In this document: piece by piece, positions 4,131 to 63,793 of the stretch
Layout of the letters: the number at the start of each line of letters is the position of its first letter
Numbering within the stretch: the first letter of the stretch is position 1
DNA from: Escherichia coli
Lineage (GTDB): Bacteria > Pseudomonadota > Gammaproteobacteria > Enterobacterales > Enterobacteriaceae
NCBI RefSeq assembly: GCF_003790525.1
Contig: NZ_CP033635.1
DNA length: 64,000 nucleotides
Reading direction: 5' to 3' (one strand)
Position numbers and translations under genes: made by a program
The notes under the pieces: generated by a model
What the model was told of the DNA's origin: nothing
Databases searched by the model: none
What the model saw: only the letters and a program-made list of their open reading frames with translations

Positions 4131-5174
4131 ATGCGCTATCGCATTTTCCTTCTCTTTTTTTTCGCTTTGTTGCCGACGTCTTTGGTGTGGGCGGCACCAG
4201 CGCAACGGGCGTTTTCCGACTGGCAGGTCACCTGTAATAACCAAAACTTCTGCGTGGCGCGTAATACGGGCGATCATAACGGACTGGTGATGACCCTGAG
4301 CCGCAGCGCCGGGGCGCATACCGATGCCGTTTTACGTATTGAGCGCGGCGGGTTGAAGTCGCCGGATGCGTCTGAAGGGGAGATAGCGCCACGGCTGCTG
4401 TTAGATGGTGAGCCGTTGGCGTTAAGTGGTGACAAGTGGCGGATTTCACCATGGTTACTAGTAACCGATGATACGGCAACCATCACCGCGTTTTTGCAGC
4501 TGATTCAGGAAGGGAAGGCAATCACCTTACGCGATGGCAATCAGACCATTTCTCTGAATGGCTTAAAAGCGGCGTTGTTGTTTATTGATGCTCAGCAAAA
4601 GCGCGTTGGCAGTGAAACCGCGTGGATAAAGAAAGGGGACGAACCGCCGCTCAGCGTACCGCCCGCGCCTGCGCTGAAAGAGGTCGCGGTGGTTAACCCA
4701 ACGCCGACGCCACTCTCACTCGAAGAACGCAACGATTTGCTGGATTATGGAAACTGGCGGATGAATGGTCTGCGCTGCTCGCTTGATCCGTTACGTCGTG
4801 AGGTGAATGTCACTGCGCTGACCGATGATAAAGCACTGATGATGATTAGCTGTGAGGCAGGGGCCTATAACACCATTGATTTGGCATGGATTGTGTCGCG
4901 TAAAAAGCCGCTAGCCTCGCGCCCGGTTCGGTTGCGTTTGCCGTTCAACAACGGTCAGGAGACGAATGAACTGGAACTGATGAACGCAACATTTGATGAG
5001 AAATCGCGTGAACTGGTGACCTTAGCGAAAGGGCGCGGATTAAGCGATTGTGGCATTCAGGCGCGCTGGCGCTTTGACGGTCAGCGTTTTCGCCTGGTGC
5101 GTTACGCCGCAGAACCCACCTGCGATAACTGGCATGGGCCAGACGCCTGGCCCACGTTGTGGATCACCCGTTAA
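4131..5174 (+). CDS. ypfG: Secreted protein of unknown function (DUF1176-like)
   Basis: 347-aa ORF with N-terminal signal peptide (MRYRIFLLFFFALLPTSLVWA). Confidence 0.85.
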   Translation: MRYRIFLLFFFALLPTSLVWAAPAQRAFSDWQVTCNNQNFCVARNTGDHNGLVMTLSRSAGAHTDAVLRIERGGLKSPDASEGEIAPRLLLDGEPLALSGDKWRISPWLLVTDDTATITAFLQLIQEGKAITLRDGNQTISLNGLKAALLFIDAQQKRVGSETAWIKKGDEPPLSVPPAPALKEVAVVNPTPTPLSLEERNDLLDYGNWRMNGLRCSLDPLRREVNVTALTDDKALMMISCEAGAYNTIDLAWIVSRKKPLASRPVRLRLPFNNGQETNELELMNATFDEKSRELVTLAKGRGLSDCGIQARWRFDGQRFRLVRYAAEPTCDNWHGPDAWPTLWITR

Positions 5175-5213
5175 ACAAAATCCCAGATGCGCCCCTAAAA
5201 AGCGCACAGACTG

Positions 5214-5268
5214 TCTCCTCGCCCCTCTGGGGAGAGGGTTAGGGTTAGGGGAACATACAGCATCCGGC
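5214..5268. repeat. GC-rich intergenic repeat (boxC-like), copy 1
   Basis: Sequence cctcgcccctctggggagagggttagggttaggggaaca is near-identical to 18608-18650; sits between convergent ypfG and tktB. Confidence 0.5.
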
Positions 5269-5276
5269 GATCACCA

Positions 5277-7280
5277 TCAGGCACCTTTCACTCCCAGCAC
5301 CTTATGCGCTTTTGCCACAATATTCTCGGCGGTAAAGCCAAAGAACGGGAACAGCTTATCCGCCGGAGCAGATTCCCCGTAACCCGTCATCCCGACAATT
5401 GCCCCTTTCAGACCAACATACTTGTACCAGTAATCGGCGATGCCTGCTTCCACCGCTACGCGAGCCGCAACGTTAGAAGGCAACACCGACTCCCGATATT
5501 CCTCATCCTGGGCGTCGAAAATATCGGTCGAGGGCAGGGAAACTACGCGTACATTGCGACCTTCTCCCGCTAATTTCTCTGCCGCTTGCAGGGTGATTTC
5601 CATCTCTGAACCGGTGGCAATCAAAATAATATCTGGCTTACCGCCGCTGTCTTTCAACACATAACCACCACGAGCAATCTCTTTAACCTGATCCGGCGTA
5701 CGTTCCACCTGGGCCAGATTCTGCCTGGAGAGGATCAGTGCCGTCGGTCCGTTGTGGCGCTCAACCGCCAGCTTCCAGCCCACCGCTGCTTCCACCTGAT
5801 CGCACGGTCGCCAGGTGCTGAAATTTGGCGTTAAGCGCAGACTGGCCAGTTGCTCAACAGCCTGGTGCGTAGGACCATCTTCGCCCAGGCCAATTGAGTC
5901 GTGGGTATAAACCATAATCTGCCGCGCTTTCATCAGTGCCGCCATCCGCGCGGCGTTACGGGCGTATTCAACAAACATCAGGAACGTCGCGGTATACGGC
6001 ACAAAGCCGCCGTGGTGCGCAATGCCGTTGGCGATAGCGGTCATGCCAAATTCACGCACCCCGTAGTGAATGTAGTTGCCCGCCGGATCTTCCTTCAGCG
6101 AAACAGAACCTTTCCAGATGGTCAGGTTGCTGGGAGCCAGATCCGCCGAACCGCCGAGCAGCTCCGGTAGCATAGGCCCGTAAGCGTTAAGCGTATTTTG
6201 CGAAGCCTTACGGGTAGCGATTTTCGCCGGATTCGCCTGCAACTCATTGATATATTTCTGAGTCGTTTTCTCCCAGTCCTTCGGTAAACCACCGCTCATC
6301 CGACGGGTAAACTCTTCTGCCAGTTGCGGATGAGCCTTTTTATAGGCGGCAAACTTCTCATTCCAGCTCTGCTGCGCTTTTTCGCCTTTTTCGCGGGCAT
6401 CCCAGGCGTGATAAATCTCTTTAGGGATCTCAAATGGCGGATGGTGCCAGCCCAGTTTTTGCCGTGCCAGCGCCACTTCTTCTTCCCCCAGTGGTGCGCC
6501 GTGCGCCTCTTCCTTACCTGCTTTATTCGGCGAACCAAAGCCAATCACCGTACGGCAGATAATCAGCGACGGCTTATCTTTCACGCTTTGCGCTTCAAGG
6601 ATCGCTTCCTTCACCGCCTGCGGATCGTGGCCGTCGATCTCGTGGATCACATGCCAGTGATAGGCTTCAAAACGTTTTGCTGTATCGTCGGTAAACCAGC
6701 CTTCGGTTTCACCGTCGATGGAAATACCGTTGTGATCGTAAAAACCAATCAGCTTGCCCAGTCCCAGCGTGCCCGCCAGCGAACAGACTTCGTGGGAAAT
6801 ACCTTCCATCAGGCAGCCGTCGCCCATAAACACATAGGTGAAGTGATCGACAATTTCATGATCTGGCTGGTTAAACTGCGCCGCCAGCGTACGCTCTGCT
6901 ATCGCCAGCCCGACGGCGTTCGCCAAACCTTGTCCAAGTGGACCGGTGGTGGTTTCAACACCAGGCGTATAGCCGATTTCCGGGTGACCAGGGGTTTTCG
7001 AATGCAACTGACGAAAGTTCTTCAGTTCTTCCAGCGGCAGGTCGTAACCGGTCAGATGCAGCAAACTGTAGAGCAGCATCGACGCGTGACCGTTGGAAAG
7101 AATAAAGCGGTCGCGATCATACCAGGTTGGGTCGGTAGGATTATGTTTAAGAAAATCGTTCCACAGCACTTCGGCAATATCAGCCATGCCCATCGGCGCG
7201 CCGGGATGACCAGAATTGGCTTTTTGTACCGCATCCATACTGAGTGCGCGAATCGCATTGGCAAGGTCTTTTCGGGACAT
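5277..7280 (-). CDS. tktB: Transketolase 2
   Basis: ORF trimmed to ATG at 7278-7280 ([27 protein letters not shown]); immediately downstream of talA. Confidence 0.92.
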
Positions 7281-7299
7281 ATAACACTCCGTGGCTGGT

Positions 7300-8250
7300 T
7301 TATAGTTTGGCGGCAAGAAGATCTTCCAGTTTGCGTTGATCAACGGCGAACAGACGAATGCCTTCAGACAGTTTTTCTACCGCCATCGCATCCTGATTGT
7401 GCTCCCAACGGAACTCCGCTTCGCTCATGGGAGCTGGGCGTGGGAACGTCTGAGAAGGTGGGATTAATTTACGTACCACTGGCGAAACTTTTTCCTGCAG
7501 CTCCTTTAGCAAATTCGGTGCGATAGTCAGTCGATCGCAGCCGGTTAAGGCGAGGATTTGTTCGGTGCGACGGAAACTCGCGCCCATCACAATGGTTTCA
7601 TAGTGGTGTTGCTTATAGTAGTCGTAGATATTGCGTACTGATTTAACGCCTGGATCTTCTTCCACCACATACGGGTCCATCGGCTTGCGTGCCTGATACC
7701 AGTCATAAATACGCCCGACAAACGGCGAAATCAGAAATACGCCTGCTTCTGCACAGGCCCGCGCCTGTGCAAAAGAAAACAGCAGCGTCAGGTTGCAGTT
7801 AATACCTTCTTTTTCCAGCTCTTCTGCCGCGCGAATTCCTTCCCAGGTTGAAGCCAGCTTGATCAAAATGCGTGATTTCTCAACGCCTTGTTGCTGATAC
7901 AAGTCCACCAGATGGCGGGCCTTTTCAATACTCTTTTCTTTATCAAAAGAGAGGCGTGCATCAACTTCTGTTGACACGCGACCGGGTACGATTTTGAGAA
8001 TTTCAGCACCGAAATTGACCGCCAGTTTGTCACACGCTGCGACCACCTGTTGTTCCTGGGTTTTGCCATTTTTTTTACCCCAGGCGATAGCATCGTCTAT
8101 TAAATGCTCATATTGTGATAATCCGGCAGCCTTGAGTAACAGCGAAGGATTGGTGGTGGCATCCTGGGGATGATAATGGCGAATGGACTCAATATCGCCG
8201 CTGTCTGCCACGACAGTGGTGAACTGTTTGATGCCGTCTAACTCGTTCAT
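7300..8250 (-). CDS. talA: Transaldolase A
   Basis: 316-aa ORF; transaldolase sequence; forms talA-tktB pair. Confidence 0.92.
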
Positions 8251-15164: not shown

Positions 15165-16568
15165 ATGAATCAACAGGATATTGAACAGGTGGTGAAAGCG
15201 GTACTGCTGAAAATGCAAAGCAGTGACACGCCGCCCGCCGCCGTTCATGAGATGGGCGTTTTCGCGTCCCTGGATGACGCCGTTGCGGCAGCCAAAGTCG
15301 CCCAGCAAGGGTTAAAAAGCGTGGCAATGCGCCAGTTAGCCATTGCTGCCATTCGTGAGGCAGGCGAAAAACACGCCAGAGATTTAGCGGAACTTGCCGT
15401 CAGTGAAACCGGCATGGGGCGCGTTGAAGATAAATTTGCCAAAAACGTCGCTCAGGCGCGCGGCACACCAGGCGTTGAGTGCCTCTCACCACAGGTGCTG
15501 ACCGGTGACAACGGCCTGACCCTGATTGAAAACGCGCCCTGGGGCGTGGTGGCTTCGGTGACGCCTTCCACTAACCCGGCGGCAACCGTAATTAACAACG
15601 CCATCAGCCTGATTGCCGCGGGCAACAGCGTCATTTTTGCCCCGCATCCGGCGGCGAAAAAAGTCTCCCAGCGGGCGATTACGCTGCTCAACCAGGCGAT
15701 TGTTGCCGCAGGCGGGCCGGAAAACTTACTGGTTACTGTGGCCAATCCGGATATCGAAACCGCGCAACGTTTGTTCAAGTTCCCGGGTATCGGCCTGCTG
15801 GTGGTGACCGGCGGCGAAGCGGTAGTGGAAGCGGCGCGTAAACACACCAATAAACGTCTGATTGCCGCAGGCGCTGGCAACCCGCCGGTAGTGGTGGATG
15901 AAACCGCCGACCTCGCCCGTGCTGCTCAGTCCATCGTCAAAGGCGCGTCTTTCGATAACAACATCATTTGTGCCGACGAAAAGGTACTGATTGTTGTTGA
16001 TAGCGTAGCCGATGAACTGATGCGTCTGATGGAAGGCCAGCATGCGGTGAAACTGACCGCAGAGCAGGCGCAGCAACTGCAATCGGTGTTGCTGAAAAAT
16101 ATCGACGAGTGCGGAAAAGGCACCGTCAGCCGTGACTGGGTTGGTCGCGATGCGGCGAAAATCGCGGCGGCAATCGGCCTTAAAGTTCCGGAACAAACGC
16201 GACTGCTGTTTGTAGAAACCACCGCAGAACATCCGTTTGCCGTGACCGAACTGATGATGCCGGTGCTGCCCGTCGTGCGCGTCGCCAACGTGGCGGATGC
16301 CATTGCGCTGGCGGTGAAACTGGAAGGCGGTTGCCACCACACGGCGGCAATGCACTCGCGCAATATCGAGAACATGAACCAGATGGCGAATGCCATTGAT
16401 ACCAGCATTTTCGTTAAGAACGGACCGTGCATTGCCGGGCTGGGGCTGGGCGGGGAAGGCTGGACCACCATGACCATCACCACGCCAACCGGTGAAGGGG
16501 TAACCAGCGCGCGGACGTTTGTCCGTCTGCGTCGCTGTGTATTAGTCGATGCGTTTCGCATTGTTTAA
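15165..16568 (+). CDS. eutE: EutE, CoA-acylating acetaldehyde dehydrogenase
   Basis: 467-aa ORF; aldehyde dehydrogenase family; eut synteny. Confidence 0.92.
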   Translation: MNQQDIEQVVKAVLLKMQSSDTPPAAVHEMGVFASLDDAVAAAKVAQQGLKSVAMRQLAIAAIREAGEKHARDLAELAVSETGMGRVEDKFAKNVAQARGTPGVECLSPQVLTGDNGLTLIENAPWGVVASVTPSTNPAATVINNAISLIAAGNSVIFAPHPAAKKVSQRAITLLNQAIVAAGGPENLLVTVANPDIETAQRLFKFPGIGLLVVTGGEAVVEAARKHTNKRLIAAGAGNPPVVVDETADLARAAQSIVKGASFDNNIICADEKVLIVVDSVADELMRLMEGQHAVKLTAEQAQQLQSVLLKNIDECGKGTVSRDWVGRDAAKIAAAIGLKVPEQTRLLFVETTAEHPFAVTELMMPVLPVVRVANVADAIALAVKLEGGCHHTAAMHSRNIENMNQMANAIDTSIFVKNGPCIAGLGLGGEGWTTMTITTPTGEGVTSARTFVRLRRCVLVDAFRIV

Positions 16569-16578
16569 GGAGTAACCG

Positions 16579-17415
16579 ATGGCGCACGATGAACAATGGC
16601 TCACCCCACGTCTGCAAACGGCGGCAACGCTGTGTAACCAGACGCCCGCCGCGACGGAATCTCCGCTGTGGCTGGGGGTGGATCTGGGCACCTGCGATGT
16701 GGTGTCGATGGTTGTCGACCGCGACGGTCTGCCGGTGGCGGTATGCCTCGACTGGGCCGATGTGGTCCGCGACGGCATCGTCTGGGATTTCTTCGGTGCG
16801 GTCACCATTGTTCGTCGCCATCTCGACACCCTCGAGCAGCAATTCGGTCGCCGTTTTAGCCATGCGGCGACCTCTTTTCCTCCAGGTACGGACCCGCGTA
16901 TTTCCATCAACGTGCTGGAGTCTGCCGGACTGGAAGTGAGCCATGTACTGGATGAGCCAACCGCAGTCGCGGATCTGCTGCAACTGGACAACGCCGGTGT
17001 AGTGGATATCGGCGGTGGCACTACTGGTATTGCCATCGTGAAAAAGGGCAAGGTGACGTACTCGGCGGATGAAGCGACCGGCGGACATCACATCTCTCTG
17101 ACTCTCGCCGGAAATCGTCGTATTTCGCTGGAAGAGGCAGAGCAGTACAAGCGCGGTCACGGTGAAGAGATTTGGCCCGCGGTGAAACCGGTGTACGAAA
17201 AAATGGCGGACATTGTCGCCCGGCATATTGAAGGGCAGGGCATTACGGATTTATGGCTGGCGGGCGGCTCTTGTATGCAACCGGGCGTGGCGGAACTGTT
17301 TCGCAAACAATTTCCGGCGTTACAGGTGCATTTACCGCAGCACAGTTTGTTTATGACCCCGCTGGCGATCGCCAGTAGCGGGCGAGAGAAAGCGGAGGGG
17401 CTATATGCAAAATGA
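16579..17415 (+). CDS. eutJ: EutJ, actin/Hsp70-fold chaperone-like protein
   Basis: 278-aa ORF; eut synteny. Confidence 0.9.
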   Translation: MAHDEQWLTPRLQTAATLCNQTPAATESPLWLGVDLGTCDVVSMVVDRDGLPVAVCLDWADVVRDGIVWDFFGAVTIVRRHLDTLEQQFGRRFSHAATSFPPGTDPRISINVLESAGLEVSHVLDEPTAVADLLQLDNAGVVDIGGGTTGIAIVKKGKVTYSADEATGGHHISLTLAGNRRISLEEAEQYKRGHGEEIWPAVKPVYEKMADIVARHIEGQGITDLWLAGGSCMQPGVAELFRKQFPALQVHLPQHSLFMTPLAIASSGREKAEGLYAK

Positions 17416-18592
17416 ATTGCAGACCGCGCTCTTTCAGGCGTTCGATACCCTGAATCTGCAACGGGTAAAAACATTTAGCGTTCCACCGGTGACGCTTTGC
17501 GGTCCGGGCGCGGTGAGCAGTTGTGGGCAGCAAGCGCAAACGCGTGGGCTGAAACATCTGTTCGTGATGGCAGACAGCTTTTTGCATCAGGCAGGGATGA
17601 CCGCCGGGCTGACACGTAGCCTGGCCGTTAAAGGTATCGCCATGACGCTCTGGCCATGTCCGGTGGGCGAACCATGCATCACCGACGTGTGTGCAGCCGT
17701 GGCGCAGTTGCGTGAATCAGGCTGTGACGGGGTGATTGCGTTTGGCGGCGGCTCGGTGCTGGATGCAGCAAAAGCCGTGGCGTTGCTGGTGACGAACCCG
17801 GATAGCACGCTGGCAGAGATGTCAGAAACCAGCGTTCTGCAACCGCGCCTGCCGTTGATTGCCATTCCGACTACCGCCGGAACCGGCTCTGAAACCACCA
17901 ACGTAACGGTGATTATCGATGCGGTGAGCGGGCGTAAGCAGGTGTTAGCCCATGCCTCGCTGATGCCGGATGTGGCGATTCTCGACGCCGCATTGACCGA
18001 AGGTGTGCCGTCGCATGTCACGGCGATGACTGGCATTGATGCGTTAACCCATGCCATTGAAGCGTACAGCGCGCTGAACGCCACACCATTTACCGACAGC
18101 CTGGCGATTGGCGCCATTGCGATGATTGGTCAATCGCTGCCGAAAGCGGTGGGCTACGGTCACGACCTTGCCGCGCGCGAGAGCATGTTGCTGGCTTCAT
18201 GTATGGCGGGAATGGCGTTTTCCAGTGCGGGGCTTGGGTTGTGCCACGCGATGGCGCATCAGCCAGGGGCGGCGCTGCATATTCCGCACGGTCTGGCGAA
18301 CGCTATGTTGCTGCCAACGGTAATGGAATTTAACCGGATGGTTTGTCGTGATCGGTTTAGTCAGATTGGCCGGGCGCTGAGAACTAAAAAATCCGACGAT
18401 CGTGACGCTATTAACGCGGTAAGTGAGCTGATTGCGGAAGTCGGGATTGGTAAACGACTGGGCGATATTGGTGCGACATCTGCGCATTACGGCGCATGGG
18501 CGCAGGCCGCGCTGGAAGATATTTGTCTGCGCAGCAACCCGCGTACCGCCAGCCTGGAGCAGATTATTGGTCTGTATGCTGCGGCGCAATAA
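17405..18592 (+). CDS. eutG: EutG, iron-containing alcohol dehydrogenase
   Basis: 395-aa ORF; overlaps eutJ by 11 nt. Confidence 0.9.
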   Translation: MQNELQTALFQAFDTLNLQRVKTFSVPPVTLCGPGAVSSCGQQAQTRGLKHLFVMADSFLHQAGMTAGLTRSLAVKGIAMTLWPCPVGEPCITDVCAAVAQLRESGCDGVIAFGGGSVLDAAKAVALLVTNPDSTLAEMSETSVLQPRLPLIAIPTTAGTGSETTNVTVIIDAVSGRKQVLAHASLMPDVAILDAALTEGVPSHVTAMTGIDALTHAIEAYSALNATPFTDSLAIGAIAMIGQSLPKAVGYGHDLAARESMLLASCMAGMAFSSAGLGLCHAMAHQPGAALHIPHGLANAMLLPTVMEFNRMVCRDRFSQIGRALRTKKSDDRDAINAVSELIAEVGIGKRLGDIGATSAHYGAWAQAALEDICLRSNPRTASLEQIIGLYAAAQ

Positions 18593-18607
18593 AAGTGTAC
18601 GGACAGT

Positions 18608-18707
18608 CCCCTCGCCCCTTTGGGGAGAGGGTTAGGGTGAGGGGAACAGAGTCGCTCCGGTGCAAACAATTACCCTCACCCCGGTCCCTCGGCTTCCAGA
18701 GTGAGGG
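18608..18707. repeat. GC-rich intergenic repeat (boxC-like), copy 2, with additional inverted partial copy
   Basis: cccctcgcccctttggggagagggttagggtgaggggaaca matches copy at 5214-5268; downstream ccctcacccc is the inverse of gggtgagggg, so a long hairpin is possible; lies between eutG and eutH. Confidence 0.5.
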
Positions 18708-18761
18708 AAAAACCCACTTTCAGCATTGGCAATAAATAACAACTAACAGGGAGTAAAGGCG

Positions 18762-30453: not shown

Positions 30454-30489
30454 AAAGGCCAGCCAGTAACACAACTGACTGGCCTTTTT
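30454..30489. terminator. Bidirectional rho-independent terminator between convergent yfeX and yfeW
   Basis: Stem aaaggccag / ctggccttt with inner 4-bp extension, flanked by A-run and T-run. Confidence 0.7.
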
Positions 30490-42403: not shown

Positions 42404-42411
42404 AAAAATGG

Positions 42412-42423
42412 CGCCGATGGGCG
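42412..42423. repeat. IS4 target-site duplication, left copy (cgccgatgggcg)
   Basis: Identical 12-mer directly flanks the other IS4 end at 43850-43861. Confidence 0.85.
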
Positions 42424-43849
42424 TAATGCCAGTCAGTTAAGCAACTGACTGGCTCTTTTTCGGGGCTGTGGGGTATTTCCAGGGCCTCTCCTTTACCACT
42501 CTCGGGAAGGCCCTTTCCCTTCTTGTCGGTAATTTCACAAGTTGTCCCATACTTGCAAGATCGCGCATCAGCTCCGGTATACGTCCCGGTGAAGCGCCCT
42601 GCAATGTCATCAGCATTCTCATCACCATTCCACATGATTCTGAGAAACTCAGTTGATTCGGCCAGTAACCTTTCAGATGTTCCGCCATTTTAATCATCTG
42701 ATATCTCACCAGATTATAAGCCAGTAAGACACCCCACAGCTCTTGCTCCACAAGCTCCGGTTTTTTACTTCTCAGCGTCAGCCTGCTCAGTTGCATCGTC
42801 TGTTTTATCTCCCTGTATCCCAGTTCGATTTCCCAGCGATGACTGTACAGATCCGCCATTTCTCCTCCGGGGAAGCGCATGGCGTCCGTCATCGACGTCA
42901 GCAGATGGCAGACTTTTCCTTTGCGCGTCACGGTCAGCAGGCGGGCTGTCACTTCATTTCCCAGTCCCGGCCACTTTTTTCGTGCCTGCGGGCTGGTTTT
43001 CAGCTTCACCAGATGATCGCCTTTACCCAGTTTTCTGATCTCTTCATATTGCGCTCCCTTTCTGAGAGGTATCATCCAGTGGCGGTGTTCTCCCGCCAGG
43101 CTCCAGGCATTTAACAGTCCCAGTGAGTAATAACCTTTATCCATTAACGTCAGAGTGTTATCGCCGGTTTGTTCTATAAGTTGCTCAGCAAGCTCATTTT
43201 CGCTGTTCTTCATCGTGCCGAAGGCTGCAGCCGTCAGCAGATGGCTGGTCAGTTCCATCTGGCAGACCATTTTGACCTGCGGGTAGAGCGCCGGGTTCCC
43301 GGCATGTGTCTGGCGGGGGAAGGCTGCATCGTTCTCTGGTGTATCCGGTGTGCGCCAGAACACACCATCGATGGCCAGCAGGGTCAGGCCGCACCAGTGC
43401 GGATGCGGCGTGGCGTTATGCCAGAGCTGCGCTGTTTTCGTGAACACGCGGCGGACAGCCTCACTTCCCAGGCGCTGGCGGGCCTGAATAACGGCACTGG
43501 GGGCAACGAAGGGGCGATTGCCCGGCAGCATGATGTCCAGGCGATTCACAATCTGGTGAAGAGGTTCTTTACGCTCAAGCGCCATGCCAACAATACACCA
43601 GACCATCATTTCGAGGGGAAGACGGCGCTTGCGTAGCGTTACAGTACCTGATTCGGCAAGGCAACGAGAGATGAGTTCGGGGTCGAGGTAATCCCCCAGA
43701 GAAGTCAGTGGGTTACGCAGAGAATCGTAACGGGATACCAGATCAAGAGCCTGTCCAATGTGCATAAAAAAATCCGGAAACAAGTGAGCGTTTCCGGATT
43801 CTTACACAGCCACTGGATCGGTCAACTGATCCTTAACTGATCGGCATTA
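42424..43849 (-). mobile_element. Insertion sequence IS4 (1426 bp), intact
   Basis: Terminal 18-bp inverted repeats taatgccagtcagttaag / cttaactgatcggcatta (16 of 18 match), single transposase ORF, 12-bp direct repeats. Confidence 0.92.
42437..43765 (-). CDS. insG: IS4 transposase (DDE family)
   Basis: 442-aa ORF from ATG 43763-43765 ([16 protein letters not shown]) inside the IS4 inverted repeats. Confidence 0.9.
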
Positions 43850-43861
43850 CGCCGATGGGCG
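43850..43861. repeat. IS4 target-site duplication, right copy (cgccgatgggcg)
   Basis: Identical to 42412-42423. Confidence 0.85.
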
Positions 43862-43883
43862 CCATTTTTCACTGCGGCAAGAA

Positions 43884-58757: not shown

Positions 58758-58833
58758 TGGTGGGTCGTGCAGGATTCGAACCTGCGACCAATTGATTAAA
58801 AGTCAACTGCTCTACCAACTGAGCTAACGACCC
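58758..58833 (-). tRNA. lysV: tRNA-Lys (anticodon UUU)
   Basis: Reverse complement is a 76-nt cloverleaf ending CCA with anticodon loop CUUUUAA. Confidence 0.95.
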
Positions 58834-58837
58834 GAAG

Positions 58838-58913
58838 TGGTGGGTGATGACGGGATCGAACCGCCGACCCCCTCCTTGTAAGGGAGGTGCTCTCCCAGCT
58901 GAGCTAATCACCC
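58838..58913 (-). tRNA. valY: tRNA-Val (anticodon UAC)
   Basis: 76-nt tRNA, reverse complement GGGTGATTAGCTCAGCTGGGAGAGCACCTCCCTTACAAGGAGG...CACCCACCA. Confidence 0.95.
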
Positions 58914-58959
58914 ACTTCGGTACTTCACATTTTTACAAGAAATTTAGCTGGCGAGAAAG

Positions 58960-59035
58960 TGGTGGGTGATGACGGGATCGAACCGCCGACCCCCTCCTTG
59001 TAAGGGAGGTGCTCTCCCAGCTGAGCTAATCACCC
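58960..59035 (-). tRNA. valX: tRNA-Val (anticodon UAC)
   Basis: Identical copy of the tRNA-Val sequence. Confidence 0.95.
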
Positions 59036-59079
59036 ACTTCTCAATTTCTTGCTACACGGCGGAGACTACATAAAGTAGT

Positions 59080-59155
59080 TGGTGGGTGATGACGGGATCG
59101 AACCGCCGACCCCCTCCTTGTAAGGGAGGTGCTCTCCCAGCTGAGCTAATCACCC
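59080..59155 (-). tRNA. valU: tRNA-Val (anticodon UAC)
   Basis: Identical copy of the tRNA-Val sequence; first gene of the operon. Confidence 0.95.
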
Positions 59156-63602: not shown

Positions 63603-63678
<76 letters not shown>

Positions 63679-63717
63679 AATTTTGCACCCAGCAAAATTT
63701 GTACGTAAACGCATCGT

Positions 63718-63793
<76 letters not shown>

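Follow-up and report, generated by a model that had tools for sequence, protein, structure and literature searches.

What lies in the short GC-rich gap between the convergent genes ypfG and tktB of Escherichia coli: the shared terminator that might be expected at such a place, or a sequence with a different history? We addressed this question in a stretch of 64,000 nucleotides (called the window below), tested parts of which are 100% identical to E. coli strains SMS-3-5 and SC516. The two genes end at 5174 on the plus strand and at 5277 on the minus strand, which leaves 102 nt between their stop codons, and RefSeq records of identical sequence have nothing annotated beneath these 102 nt. In our reading, to which we assign a probability of roughly 80% as a whole, the gap would hold an inert copy of a known repeat, Box C, that decayed after it had replaced a REP sequence and that has no role as a terminator.

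4131-5174, plus strand: ypfG (DUF1176), the upstream convergent gene
5277-7343, minus strand: tktB (transketolase 2), in longest-ORF coordinates; the K-12 coding sequence has 2004 nt
5189-5205, plus strand: hairpin gcgcccctaaaaagcgc, with a 4-bp GCGC stem and a 9-nt loop

A dispersed repeat in the ypfG-tktB gap

A search of the window with the 39-nt core CCTCGCCCCTCTGGGGAGAGGGTTAGGGTTAGGGGAACA (5217-5255, plus strand) finds a second occurrence at 18610-18648, also on the plus strand, with 2 mismatches. Such a match turned up in none of 100 dinucleotide-preserving shuffles, so that the chance expectation is 0. Around the core, 5198-5255 and 18591-18648 form an ungapped direct repeat of 58 nt with 88% identity, and a looser hairpin pattern matches these two sites, both identified below as Box C, and no others in the 64-kb window. 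Chance similarity is thus excluded, both by the shuffles and by the restriction of the pattern to the two sites. The position between the stops of ypfG and tktB, without any annotated feature beneath, likewise excludes that the repeat is part of a coding sequence.

The second copy in the same orientation, with a core that differs by 2 mismatches, had already been recognized in an earlier note made from the sequence alone, and it is borne out by the shuffles and by the longer alignment. The limits given there (5214-5268) need a slight correction: the homology begins at 5198 and stops at 5255. The note had also described a short hairpin upstream of the repeat. The hairpin gcgcccctaaaaagcgc exists at 5189-5205, but an alignment of nine copies shows that neither the eut copy nor any of seven K-12 copies has it, and it was therefore rejected as a feature of the family. 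Its 3' arm is part of the 5' extension (gYGCAC...) of the repeat unit.

The further proposal that the two copies belong to a dispersed intergenic repeat family agrees with the genome data. With the 102-nt intergenic sequence as query, 5408 of 5426 complete E. coli genomes gave matches, at a median of 14 places per genome and at most 24, so the core is far from confined to two loci. Across the 5426 genomes, 65,685 matching places are chromosomal and 25 are plasmid-borne.

Identity with Box C

The sequence at 5198-5255 is one copy of Box C, which is also the PIT element, TMECO type A and the HPG1 motif. The family is already known, and our finding is the re-identification of a repeat that has been known for about thirty years. 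Box C is a non-coding repeat of about 56-60 bp, with a core of three blocks in the order CCCTCGCCCC, loop, GGGGAGAGGG, TTA, GGGTGAGGGG. TMECO were stated to have been "earlier described as BoxC" and re-discovered as the PIT element (Holder 2015, PMC4666352); the latter name goes back to Hoyne/Maher 2000, and BoxC was recovered as a known E. coli family by Petrillo et al. 2008. In MG1655 there are 23 TMECO copies, always intergenic, of which 15 are type A and 8 type B, with five inverted A+B pairs among them (Holder 2015, PMC4666352). HPG1 is dGGGAGAGGGTTAGGGTGAGGG, with 16 copies in K-12, and in HPG2 (7 copies) CCG replaces TTA (Kaplan 2016, PMC5100583).

We anchored the identity in two ways, by a published K-12 coordinate upstream of fabI and by the catalogue entry for the eut copy. 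The core GGGAGAGGGTTAGGGTGAGGGG lies between ycjD and fabI, upstream of fabI, at K-12 1351204-1351225, and this site is HPGQ no. 22, with its midpoint at 1351215 (Kaplan 2016, PMC5100583). The eut copy is TMECO #157 of SMS-3-5, at NC_010498 2652608-2652573 (Holder 2015 supplementary table, PMC4666352), a coordinate that agrees with the position computed from the eut copy of the window.

The properties of the ypfG-tktB copy itself fit this assignment. Its blocks follow the scheme CCCTC(G/T)CCCC - loop - GGGGAGAGGG - TTA or CCG - GGGTGAGGGG in the right order at 5217-5251, it is intergenic, and its relatives are multicopy and dispersed on E. coli chromosomes. It also qualifies as HPG1, a class that calls for a G-quadruplex motif (four runs of at least three G, loops of 1-7) with at most one mismatch to GGGAGAGGGTTAGGGTGAGGG: the sequence GGGAGAGGGTTAGGGTTAGGG is one mismatch away from GGGAGAGGGTTAGGGTGAGGG, and the G-quadruplex regular expression matches 5229-5251. 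The copy falls outside the ITxF catalogue rule, which tolerates no more than one mismatched triplet in the three blocks and is a search threshold rather than a definition of descent. It thus shares with Box C/PIT/TMECO/HPG1 the three-block core, the TTA loop of type A, the intergenic position, the multicopy nature and the hypervariable site, and differs from the catalogued copies by extra substitutions (block 3 reads GGGTTAGGGG, and the start of block 1 is altered). The ypfG-tktB locus is in neither of the published K-12 lists (Kaplan, Holder), because K-12 has a REP there. Rfam contains no matching family: a scan of the whole window at gathering thresholds and a scan of 5000-5450 at E<=10 returned tRNAs and noise.

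Anatomy, folding and decay of the copy

The boundaries of the unit were taken from the alignment of nine E. coli type A copies. Their consensus reads gYGCAC-n4-6-GGTCCCCTCGCCCC-TYT-GGGGAGAGGGTTAGGGTGAGGGG, followed by aaca or gcgcaca, and amounts to about 56-60 nt, in agreement with the published Box C length of 56 bp. The parts of the ypfG-tktB copy are these:

5198-5255, plus strand: Box C unit, type A, decayed; delimited by its 88% identity to 18591-18648 and by the K-12 alignment
5217-5225, plus strand: block 1, C-rich, CCTCGCCCC (canonical CCCCTCGCCCC)
5226-5228, plus strand: loop 1, TCT
5229-5238, plus strand: block 2, G-rich, GGGGAGAGGG, which complements block 1 except for one G.A mismatch
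5239-5241, plus strand: loop 2, TTA, the defining mark of type A / HPG1
5242-5251, plus strand: block 3, GGGTTAGGGG (canonical GGGTGAGGGG)
5229-5251, plus strand: canonical G-quadruplex motif GGGG-AGA-GGG-TTA-GGG-TTA-GGGG, among three in the 64-kb window

Block 1 is shortened, with one or two leading or upstream C residues replaced by T (CC to TC), and a G-to-T change in block 3 abolishes the pairing between blocks 1 and 3 and adds one more triplet mismatch. At the same locus, other strains (L145-L147) have a canonical, rule-compliant Box C, GTCCCCTCGCCCCTCTGGGGAGAGGGTTAGGGTGAGGGGAACA, from which the lineage of the window is 4-5 substitutions away. Judged by these sequences, the ypfG-tktB copy is a decayed member of Box C by descent. 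Its absence from Holder's SMS-3-5 list is explained by the 4-5 substitutions, which exceed the one-mismatch rule.

In a Box C single strand, the C-rich block should be able to pair with either of the two G-rich blocks. In vitro, the blocks fold into an intrastrand triplex of the purine motif; a G-quadruplex is a further structure that has been put forward. The folding that we computed refers to Watson-Crick pairing, and the evidence for triplex and G-quadruplex comes from published circular dichroism (CD) and NMR work on canonical oligonucleotides. As single-stranded DNA, canonical copies reach -12.4 (z -2.8) and -10.1 kcal/mol (z -2.1) through pairing of block 1 and block 3, and the conserved "mismatch" G of CCCTCGCCCC then forms a G.T wobble opposite GGGTGAGGG. 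The window copy, as DNA, gives a weak stem between blocks 1 and 2 (-7.6 kcal/mol, z -1.2) that is no better than shuffles. The 109-nt intergenic region folds somewhat better than shuffles as plus-strand RNA (-36.3 kcal/mol, z -2.6), and not better than shuffles as minus-strand RNA (z -0.8).

Box C and REP as alleles of the same sites

The history of the copy can be read from other strains. The genes that flank the gap are present in 5418 of 5426 genomes, and 830 of the 5426 have the Box C allele between them, this allele being called when at least 80% of the intergenic region was present. Between identical flanks, the gap of K-12 and of seven more strains that were sampled is filled by REP variants (76-109 nt); these alleles consist of one REP (GTAGGCCGGATAAGACGC...GCGTCGCATCCGGCAATCA) and small duplications. 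All alleles share ACAAAAT as the left flank and (CA)GCATCCGGCGATCACCA as the right one. A comparable situation exists at the second copy, between eutG and eutH.

5182-5257, either strand: allele-specific segment of 76 nt, from the intergenic alignment of the window with L001 and L003-L009; a REP-containing segment in K-12 and the majority of E. coli
5258-5276, either strand: flank common to the REP alleles, CAGCATCCGGCGATCACCA, which resembles the REP 3' arm GCATCCGGCAATCA
18591-18648, plus strand: second copy of Box C, canonical type A apart from a single stem mismatch, eutG-eutH; TMECO #157
18673-18708, plus strand: degenerate inverted Box C arm, type B-like (CCCTCACCCCGG-TCCCTC...GAGGGA), which forms an inverted pair with 18591-18648
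18594-18729, either strand: allele-specific eutG-eutH segment; tandem 100-nt BIME units (1-5) in other E. coli

The flank 5258-5276 lies outside the Box C repeat, and we infer that it is a REP remnant. The repeat itself is not a REP palindrome of the GCCGGATG...CATCCGGC type, and its likeness to a REP arm is confined to 5258-5276. As the right flank resembles a REP arm (a remnant of 17 nt), the direction of change would have been from REP to Box C: the REP probably came first at ypfG-tktB, and Box C probably displaced most of it. Box C would then have reached the site by replacing or interrupting the REP, and the 4-5 point substitutions of the window copy, with the loss of pairing between blocks 1 and 3, would have come later.

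In the window, the eutG-eutH gap (18593-18761, 169 nt) contains the forward type A copy and the degenerate inverted arm. Elsewhere (L010-L015) it measures 99, 116, 216, 316 or 515 nt, corresponding to 1, 2, 3 or 5 BIME units. The Box C allele at eutG-eutH was found in 381 of 5426 genomes. The eut genes around the Box C pair of the window are about 95% identical to the K-12 type, and the gap is a hotspot. Neither locus showed an empty allele; REP or BIME alleles were found instead, and the 76-nt segment at ypfG-tktB has no flanking direct repeat. Bachellier et al. reportedly described boxC insertions at BIME loci in 1997. That both copies of the window are allelic with REP/BIME, the elements present at these sites in most E. 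coli, shows that the two families compete for the same intergenic sites. TMECO loci are also far more variable than control intergenic regions (Holder 2015, PMC4666352).

The ypfG-tktB Box C allele occurs in 15% of genomes, with flank identities ranging from 96.8 to 100%, and its persistence at this level is compatible with neutrality as well as with weak selection. As natural allele pairs, Box C and REP could reveal effects on the expression of flanking genes. Box C resembles REP/BIME in being a short, structured intergenic repeat, rich in GC, that often lies between convergent genes, here at the same two sites. The sequences are unrelated, however, and the simple imperfect palindrome of REP contrasts with the three blocks of Box C, of which the third is a mirror repeat. 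With MITEs (ERIC/IRU, RU-1, NEMIS/Correia), Box C shares that it is non-coding, dispersed and polymorphic in its presence, and its inverted pairs of about 100 nt, which recur as units, are a MITE-like trait. Unlike MITEs, Box C has no evident target-site duplication or IS-type transposase, and solo copies measure only about 60 nt.

Function of the ypfG-tktB copy

The earlier note had seen the repeat as standing where a convergent terminator would be expected. Our data do not support the repeat as a stand-in for such a terminator: a GC-rich stem-loop followed by a T/U run, the mark of an intrinsic terminator, is found on neither strand. In the interval 4900-5600 our scan gave 0 terminator-like sites on both strands, with no stem followed by a T-run, and the same terminator/promoter scan found no promoter-like site. 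Earlier experiments detected neither promoter nor terminator activity for PIT/Box C (Holder 2015, PMC4666352), and the literature describes no in vivo effect of these elements. With intrinsic (Rho-independent) terminators the repeat has in common a GC-rich stem just past stop codons, but it lacks the U-tract, and the published assays were negative.

A bidirectional terminator, or a stem-loop that stabilizes the mRNA 3' ends of ypfG and tktB as a functional substitute for the REP, would nevertheless fit the exact placement between convergent stops that are 102 nt apart, the presence of a GC-rich stem and the convergent-gene location of 6 of the 16 K-12 HPG1 copies (Kaplan 2016, PMC5100583). Other strains have a REP at the ypfG-tktB site. 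REPs can shield upstream mRNA from 3'-5' decay. What speaks against such a role is the missing T-run after the stem on either strand together with the 0 terminator-like sites, the published PIT/Box C tests without terminator activity, the weak DNA stem of the window copy, the z of -0.8 for minus-strand RNA, and the lack of a fixed orientation or distance of the family relative to the flanking genes, the orientation being inconsistent among the K-12 copies (Kaplan 2016, PMC5100583). We regard this role as unlikely. Kaplan (2016, PMC5100583) proposed a regulatory switch between G-quadruplex, hairpin and duplex that acts on the transcription of neighboring genes, with support from circular dichroism for hairpin and G-quadruplex forms; the canonical motif at 5229-5251, one of 3 in 64 kb and one mismatch from the HPG1 consensus, would suit such a switch. 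The 18 imino signals in published NMR spectra, however, correspond to a triplex and not to a G-quadruplex. The triplex is very stable in vitro but gives way to duplex signals once the complementary strand is present, and in vivo DMS footprinting showed no protection. The published TMECO survey found no link to gene class, distance or operon position, and 85% of E. coli have a REP in its place, which makes the site dispensable. A switch at this locus is therefore quite improbable. The strong conservation of the core among copies could, finally, reflect a small RNA gene or a protein-binding operator that is conserved for a locus-specific function; yet there is no Rfam match even at E<=10, a promoter-like site is absent, neither a transcription-factor motif nor an association with a gene class has been reported (Holder PMC4666352; Kaplan PMC5100583), and presence varies between strains, so that we consider this explanation very improbable indeed.

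We therefore return to the decayed repeat. Box C is non-coding and behaves like a selfish or neutral repeat, one that marks hypervariable intergenic sites, and at most the ypfG-tktB copy might provide the ypfG mRNA with a modest 3' stem rich in GC. The copy is most likely an inert, decaying relic, whose lack of function we infer. For annotation, this means that 5198-5255 and 18591-18648 should be labeled as Box C, and neither as terminators nor as small RNAs.

Box C-type motifs in distant bacteria

The motif occurs in more than 260 genomes (Holder 2015, PMC4666352). Our exact scan for GGGAGAGGGNNNGGGTGAGGG in species-representative genomes, which shows the breadth of the distribution, gave at least 120 loci, and the matches listed were all from metagenome-assembled genomes (MAGs). 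Among them are MAGs of Afipia, Hyphomicrobiales, Contendobacter, Deltaproteobacteria and the AT-rich Candidatus Gracilibacteria. A CCTC-N-CC block lies within 20 nt upstream in 127 of the 141 GGGAGAGGGNNNGGGTGAGGG matches listed. The flanks outside the motif are lineage-specific, and the motif is multicopy in distant MAGs. In MAG GL140_5, about 28 contigs are among the matches listed, with two longer consensus elements.

A tblastn search with YcjD against the listed motif-selected loci (1.05 Mb) found 2 genes for proteins with a DUF559 domain. With only 2 such genes in 1.05 Mb, most Box C-type motifs are not adjacent to a DUF559 gene.

DUF559 endonuclease genes bracketed by Box C-type motifs

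All 12 DUF559 genes that we examined at the DNA level have a three-block motif of the Box C type at one end or at both, and the motif often overlaps the start or stop codon. The 12 genes come from E. coli, Enterobacter, Klebsiella, another enterobacterium, an Afipia MAG, a Gracilibacteria MAG and six metagenome contigs. Protein homology was the sole criterion for nine of them, six of which were taken specifically because they lacked motif-like protein tails; each of the nine has a lineage-specific version of the motif at one end or at both. The two genes that came from motif-selected loci (Afipia and Gracilibacteria) are flanked by three-block motifs on either side. Where both ends carry motifs, the arrangement is [C1-loop-G2-(spacer)-G3]-ORF-[C3-(spacer)-C1-loop-G2].

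L002 4164-4829 (K-12 ycjD region), L053, L103, L136-L142 and L154-L157: DUF559/motif loci examined

K-12 YcjD belongs to Pfam DUF559 (PF04480), and its nearest solved structure is 3HRL, an "endonuclease-like protein". K-12 ycjD ends with ...tcaCCCTCTCCCtga, and a full Box C follows 181 nt downstream. Most of the 120 closest YcjD homologues have the C-terminus ...PSPRPSP. These residues are encoded by CCCTCACCC-CGG-CCCTCTCCC, which is Box C type B read in reverse complement. Among 146 diverse representatives, motif-derived peptides were found on the C side in 42 (vs. 3 of 822 control ORFs) and on the N side in 20 (vs. 12 of 822). Pyrimidine/purine hairpins reach 3.2 per kb within 130 nt of DUF559 gene ends, as compared with 0.16 per kb elsewhere in the same loci (about 20-fold lower) and 0.08 per kb in the window. 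The genomic neighborhoods of DUF559 genes differ between genera.

In two loci (L155, L103), block 2 is not mirror-symmetric (GGAGAAGG), and block 3, GGATGAGG, is its mirror image apart from a single A-to-T change, and not a direct copy of it. This covariation would favor a triplex geometry with an antiparallel third strand. In two Klebsiella loci (L138, L139) we also noticed, at 1364-1590, past the DUF559 gene, two tandem 66-nt repeats, each with a CCCTCTCC...GAGAGGGAG hairpin, between a type B motif in reverse orientation, located at the stop codon, and a type A Box C in forward orientation.

The association between DUF559 and Box C looks solid. In the open-access literature we found no report that links DUF559 or ycjD to Box C. 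Tentatively, and with somewhat less than even odds in our estimate, the comparison suggests that Box C-type motifs, orphans included, may serve a widespread selfish element that carries a DUF559 endonuclease, either as its terminal inverted repeats or as its recognition hairpins, and that solo copies and pairs may be gene-less derivatives. The nuclease may mobilize the motif; alternatively, the gene may use the motif as a homing site, or may simply be regulated by it. Neither copy of the window lies within about 130 nt of a PF04480 gene end or overlaps one; they are orphans, solo or paired, with no DUF559 gene near either.

The arrangement resembles the REP/RAYT (TnpA-REP) system in that inverted Box C-type motifs flank DUF559 genes as REPs flank RAYT genes. 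It differs in that the candidate partner would be a PD-(D/E)XK, Vsr-like nuclease (YcjD-like) and not an HUH Y1 transposase. Where Box C comes from and what it does has been a puzzle since the 1990s, and the bracketing of DUF559 genes offers a concrete candidate partner, YcjD in the case of E. coli. If true, the partnership would explain the presence of one odd sequence in very different genomes.

Distribution of ycjD in E. coli

The ycjD gene is present in 3378 of 5426 E. coli genomes and missing in 38%. It is restricted to phylogroups A, B1 and C, together with ST69 and ST182. In the sapF-fabI interval, ycjD and its Box C (about 666 nt) are allelic with the eefRABCD efflux islet (L002 vs. 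L143 and L144). We found no clean empty ycjD site: strains without ycjD have eefRABCD, so that the boundaries of the element cannot be read. Published TMECO counts are 13-26 in ycjD-bearing lineages and 1-7 in B2 and F, a comparison that phylogeny confounds.

Other features of the window

Several other repeats and hairpins were seen in the window. The segments 42404-42441 and 43832-43869 form a 38-nt inverted repeat with 89% complementarity and 1390 nt between the arms, and its inner part, AATGCCAGTCAGTTAAGCAACTGACTGGC, resembles a terminator-like palindrome at 30455-30489. A further canonical G-quadruplex motif, GGGCTGGGGCTGGGCGGGG, at 16437-16455, is unrelated to Box C and lies in the upstream overlap region of a long plus-strand ORF (16579-17415) of the eut cluster. 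Most other repeats and hairpins of the window are tRNA stems; they belong to a cluster of four tRNAs, three of them near-identical, at 58761-59155 (minus strand) and to two near-identical tRNAs at 63603-63790 (plus strand).
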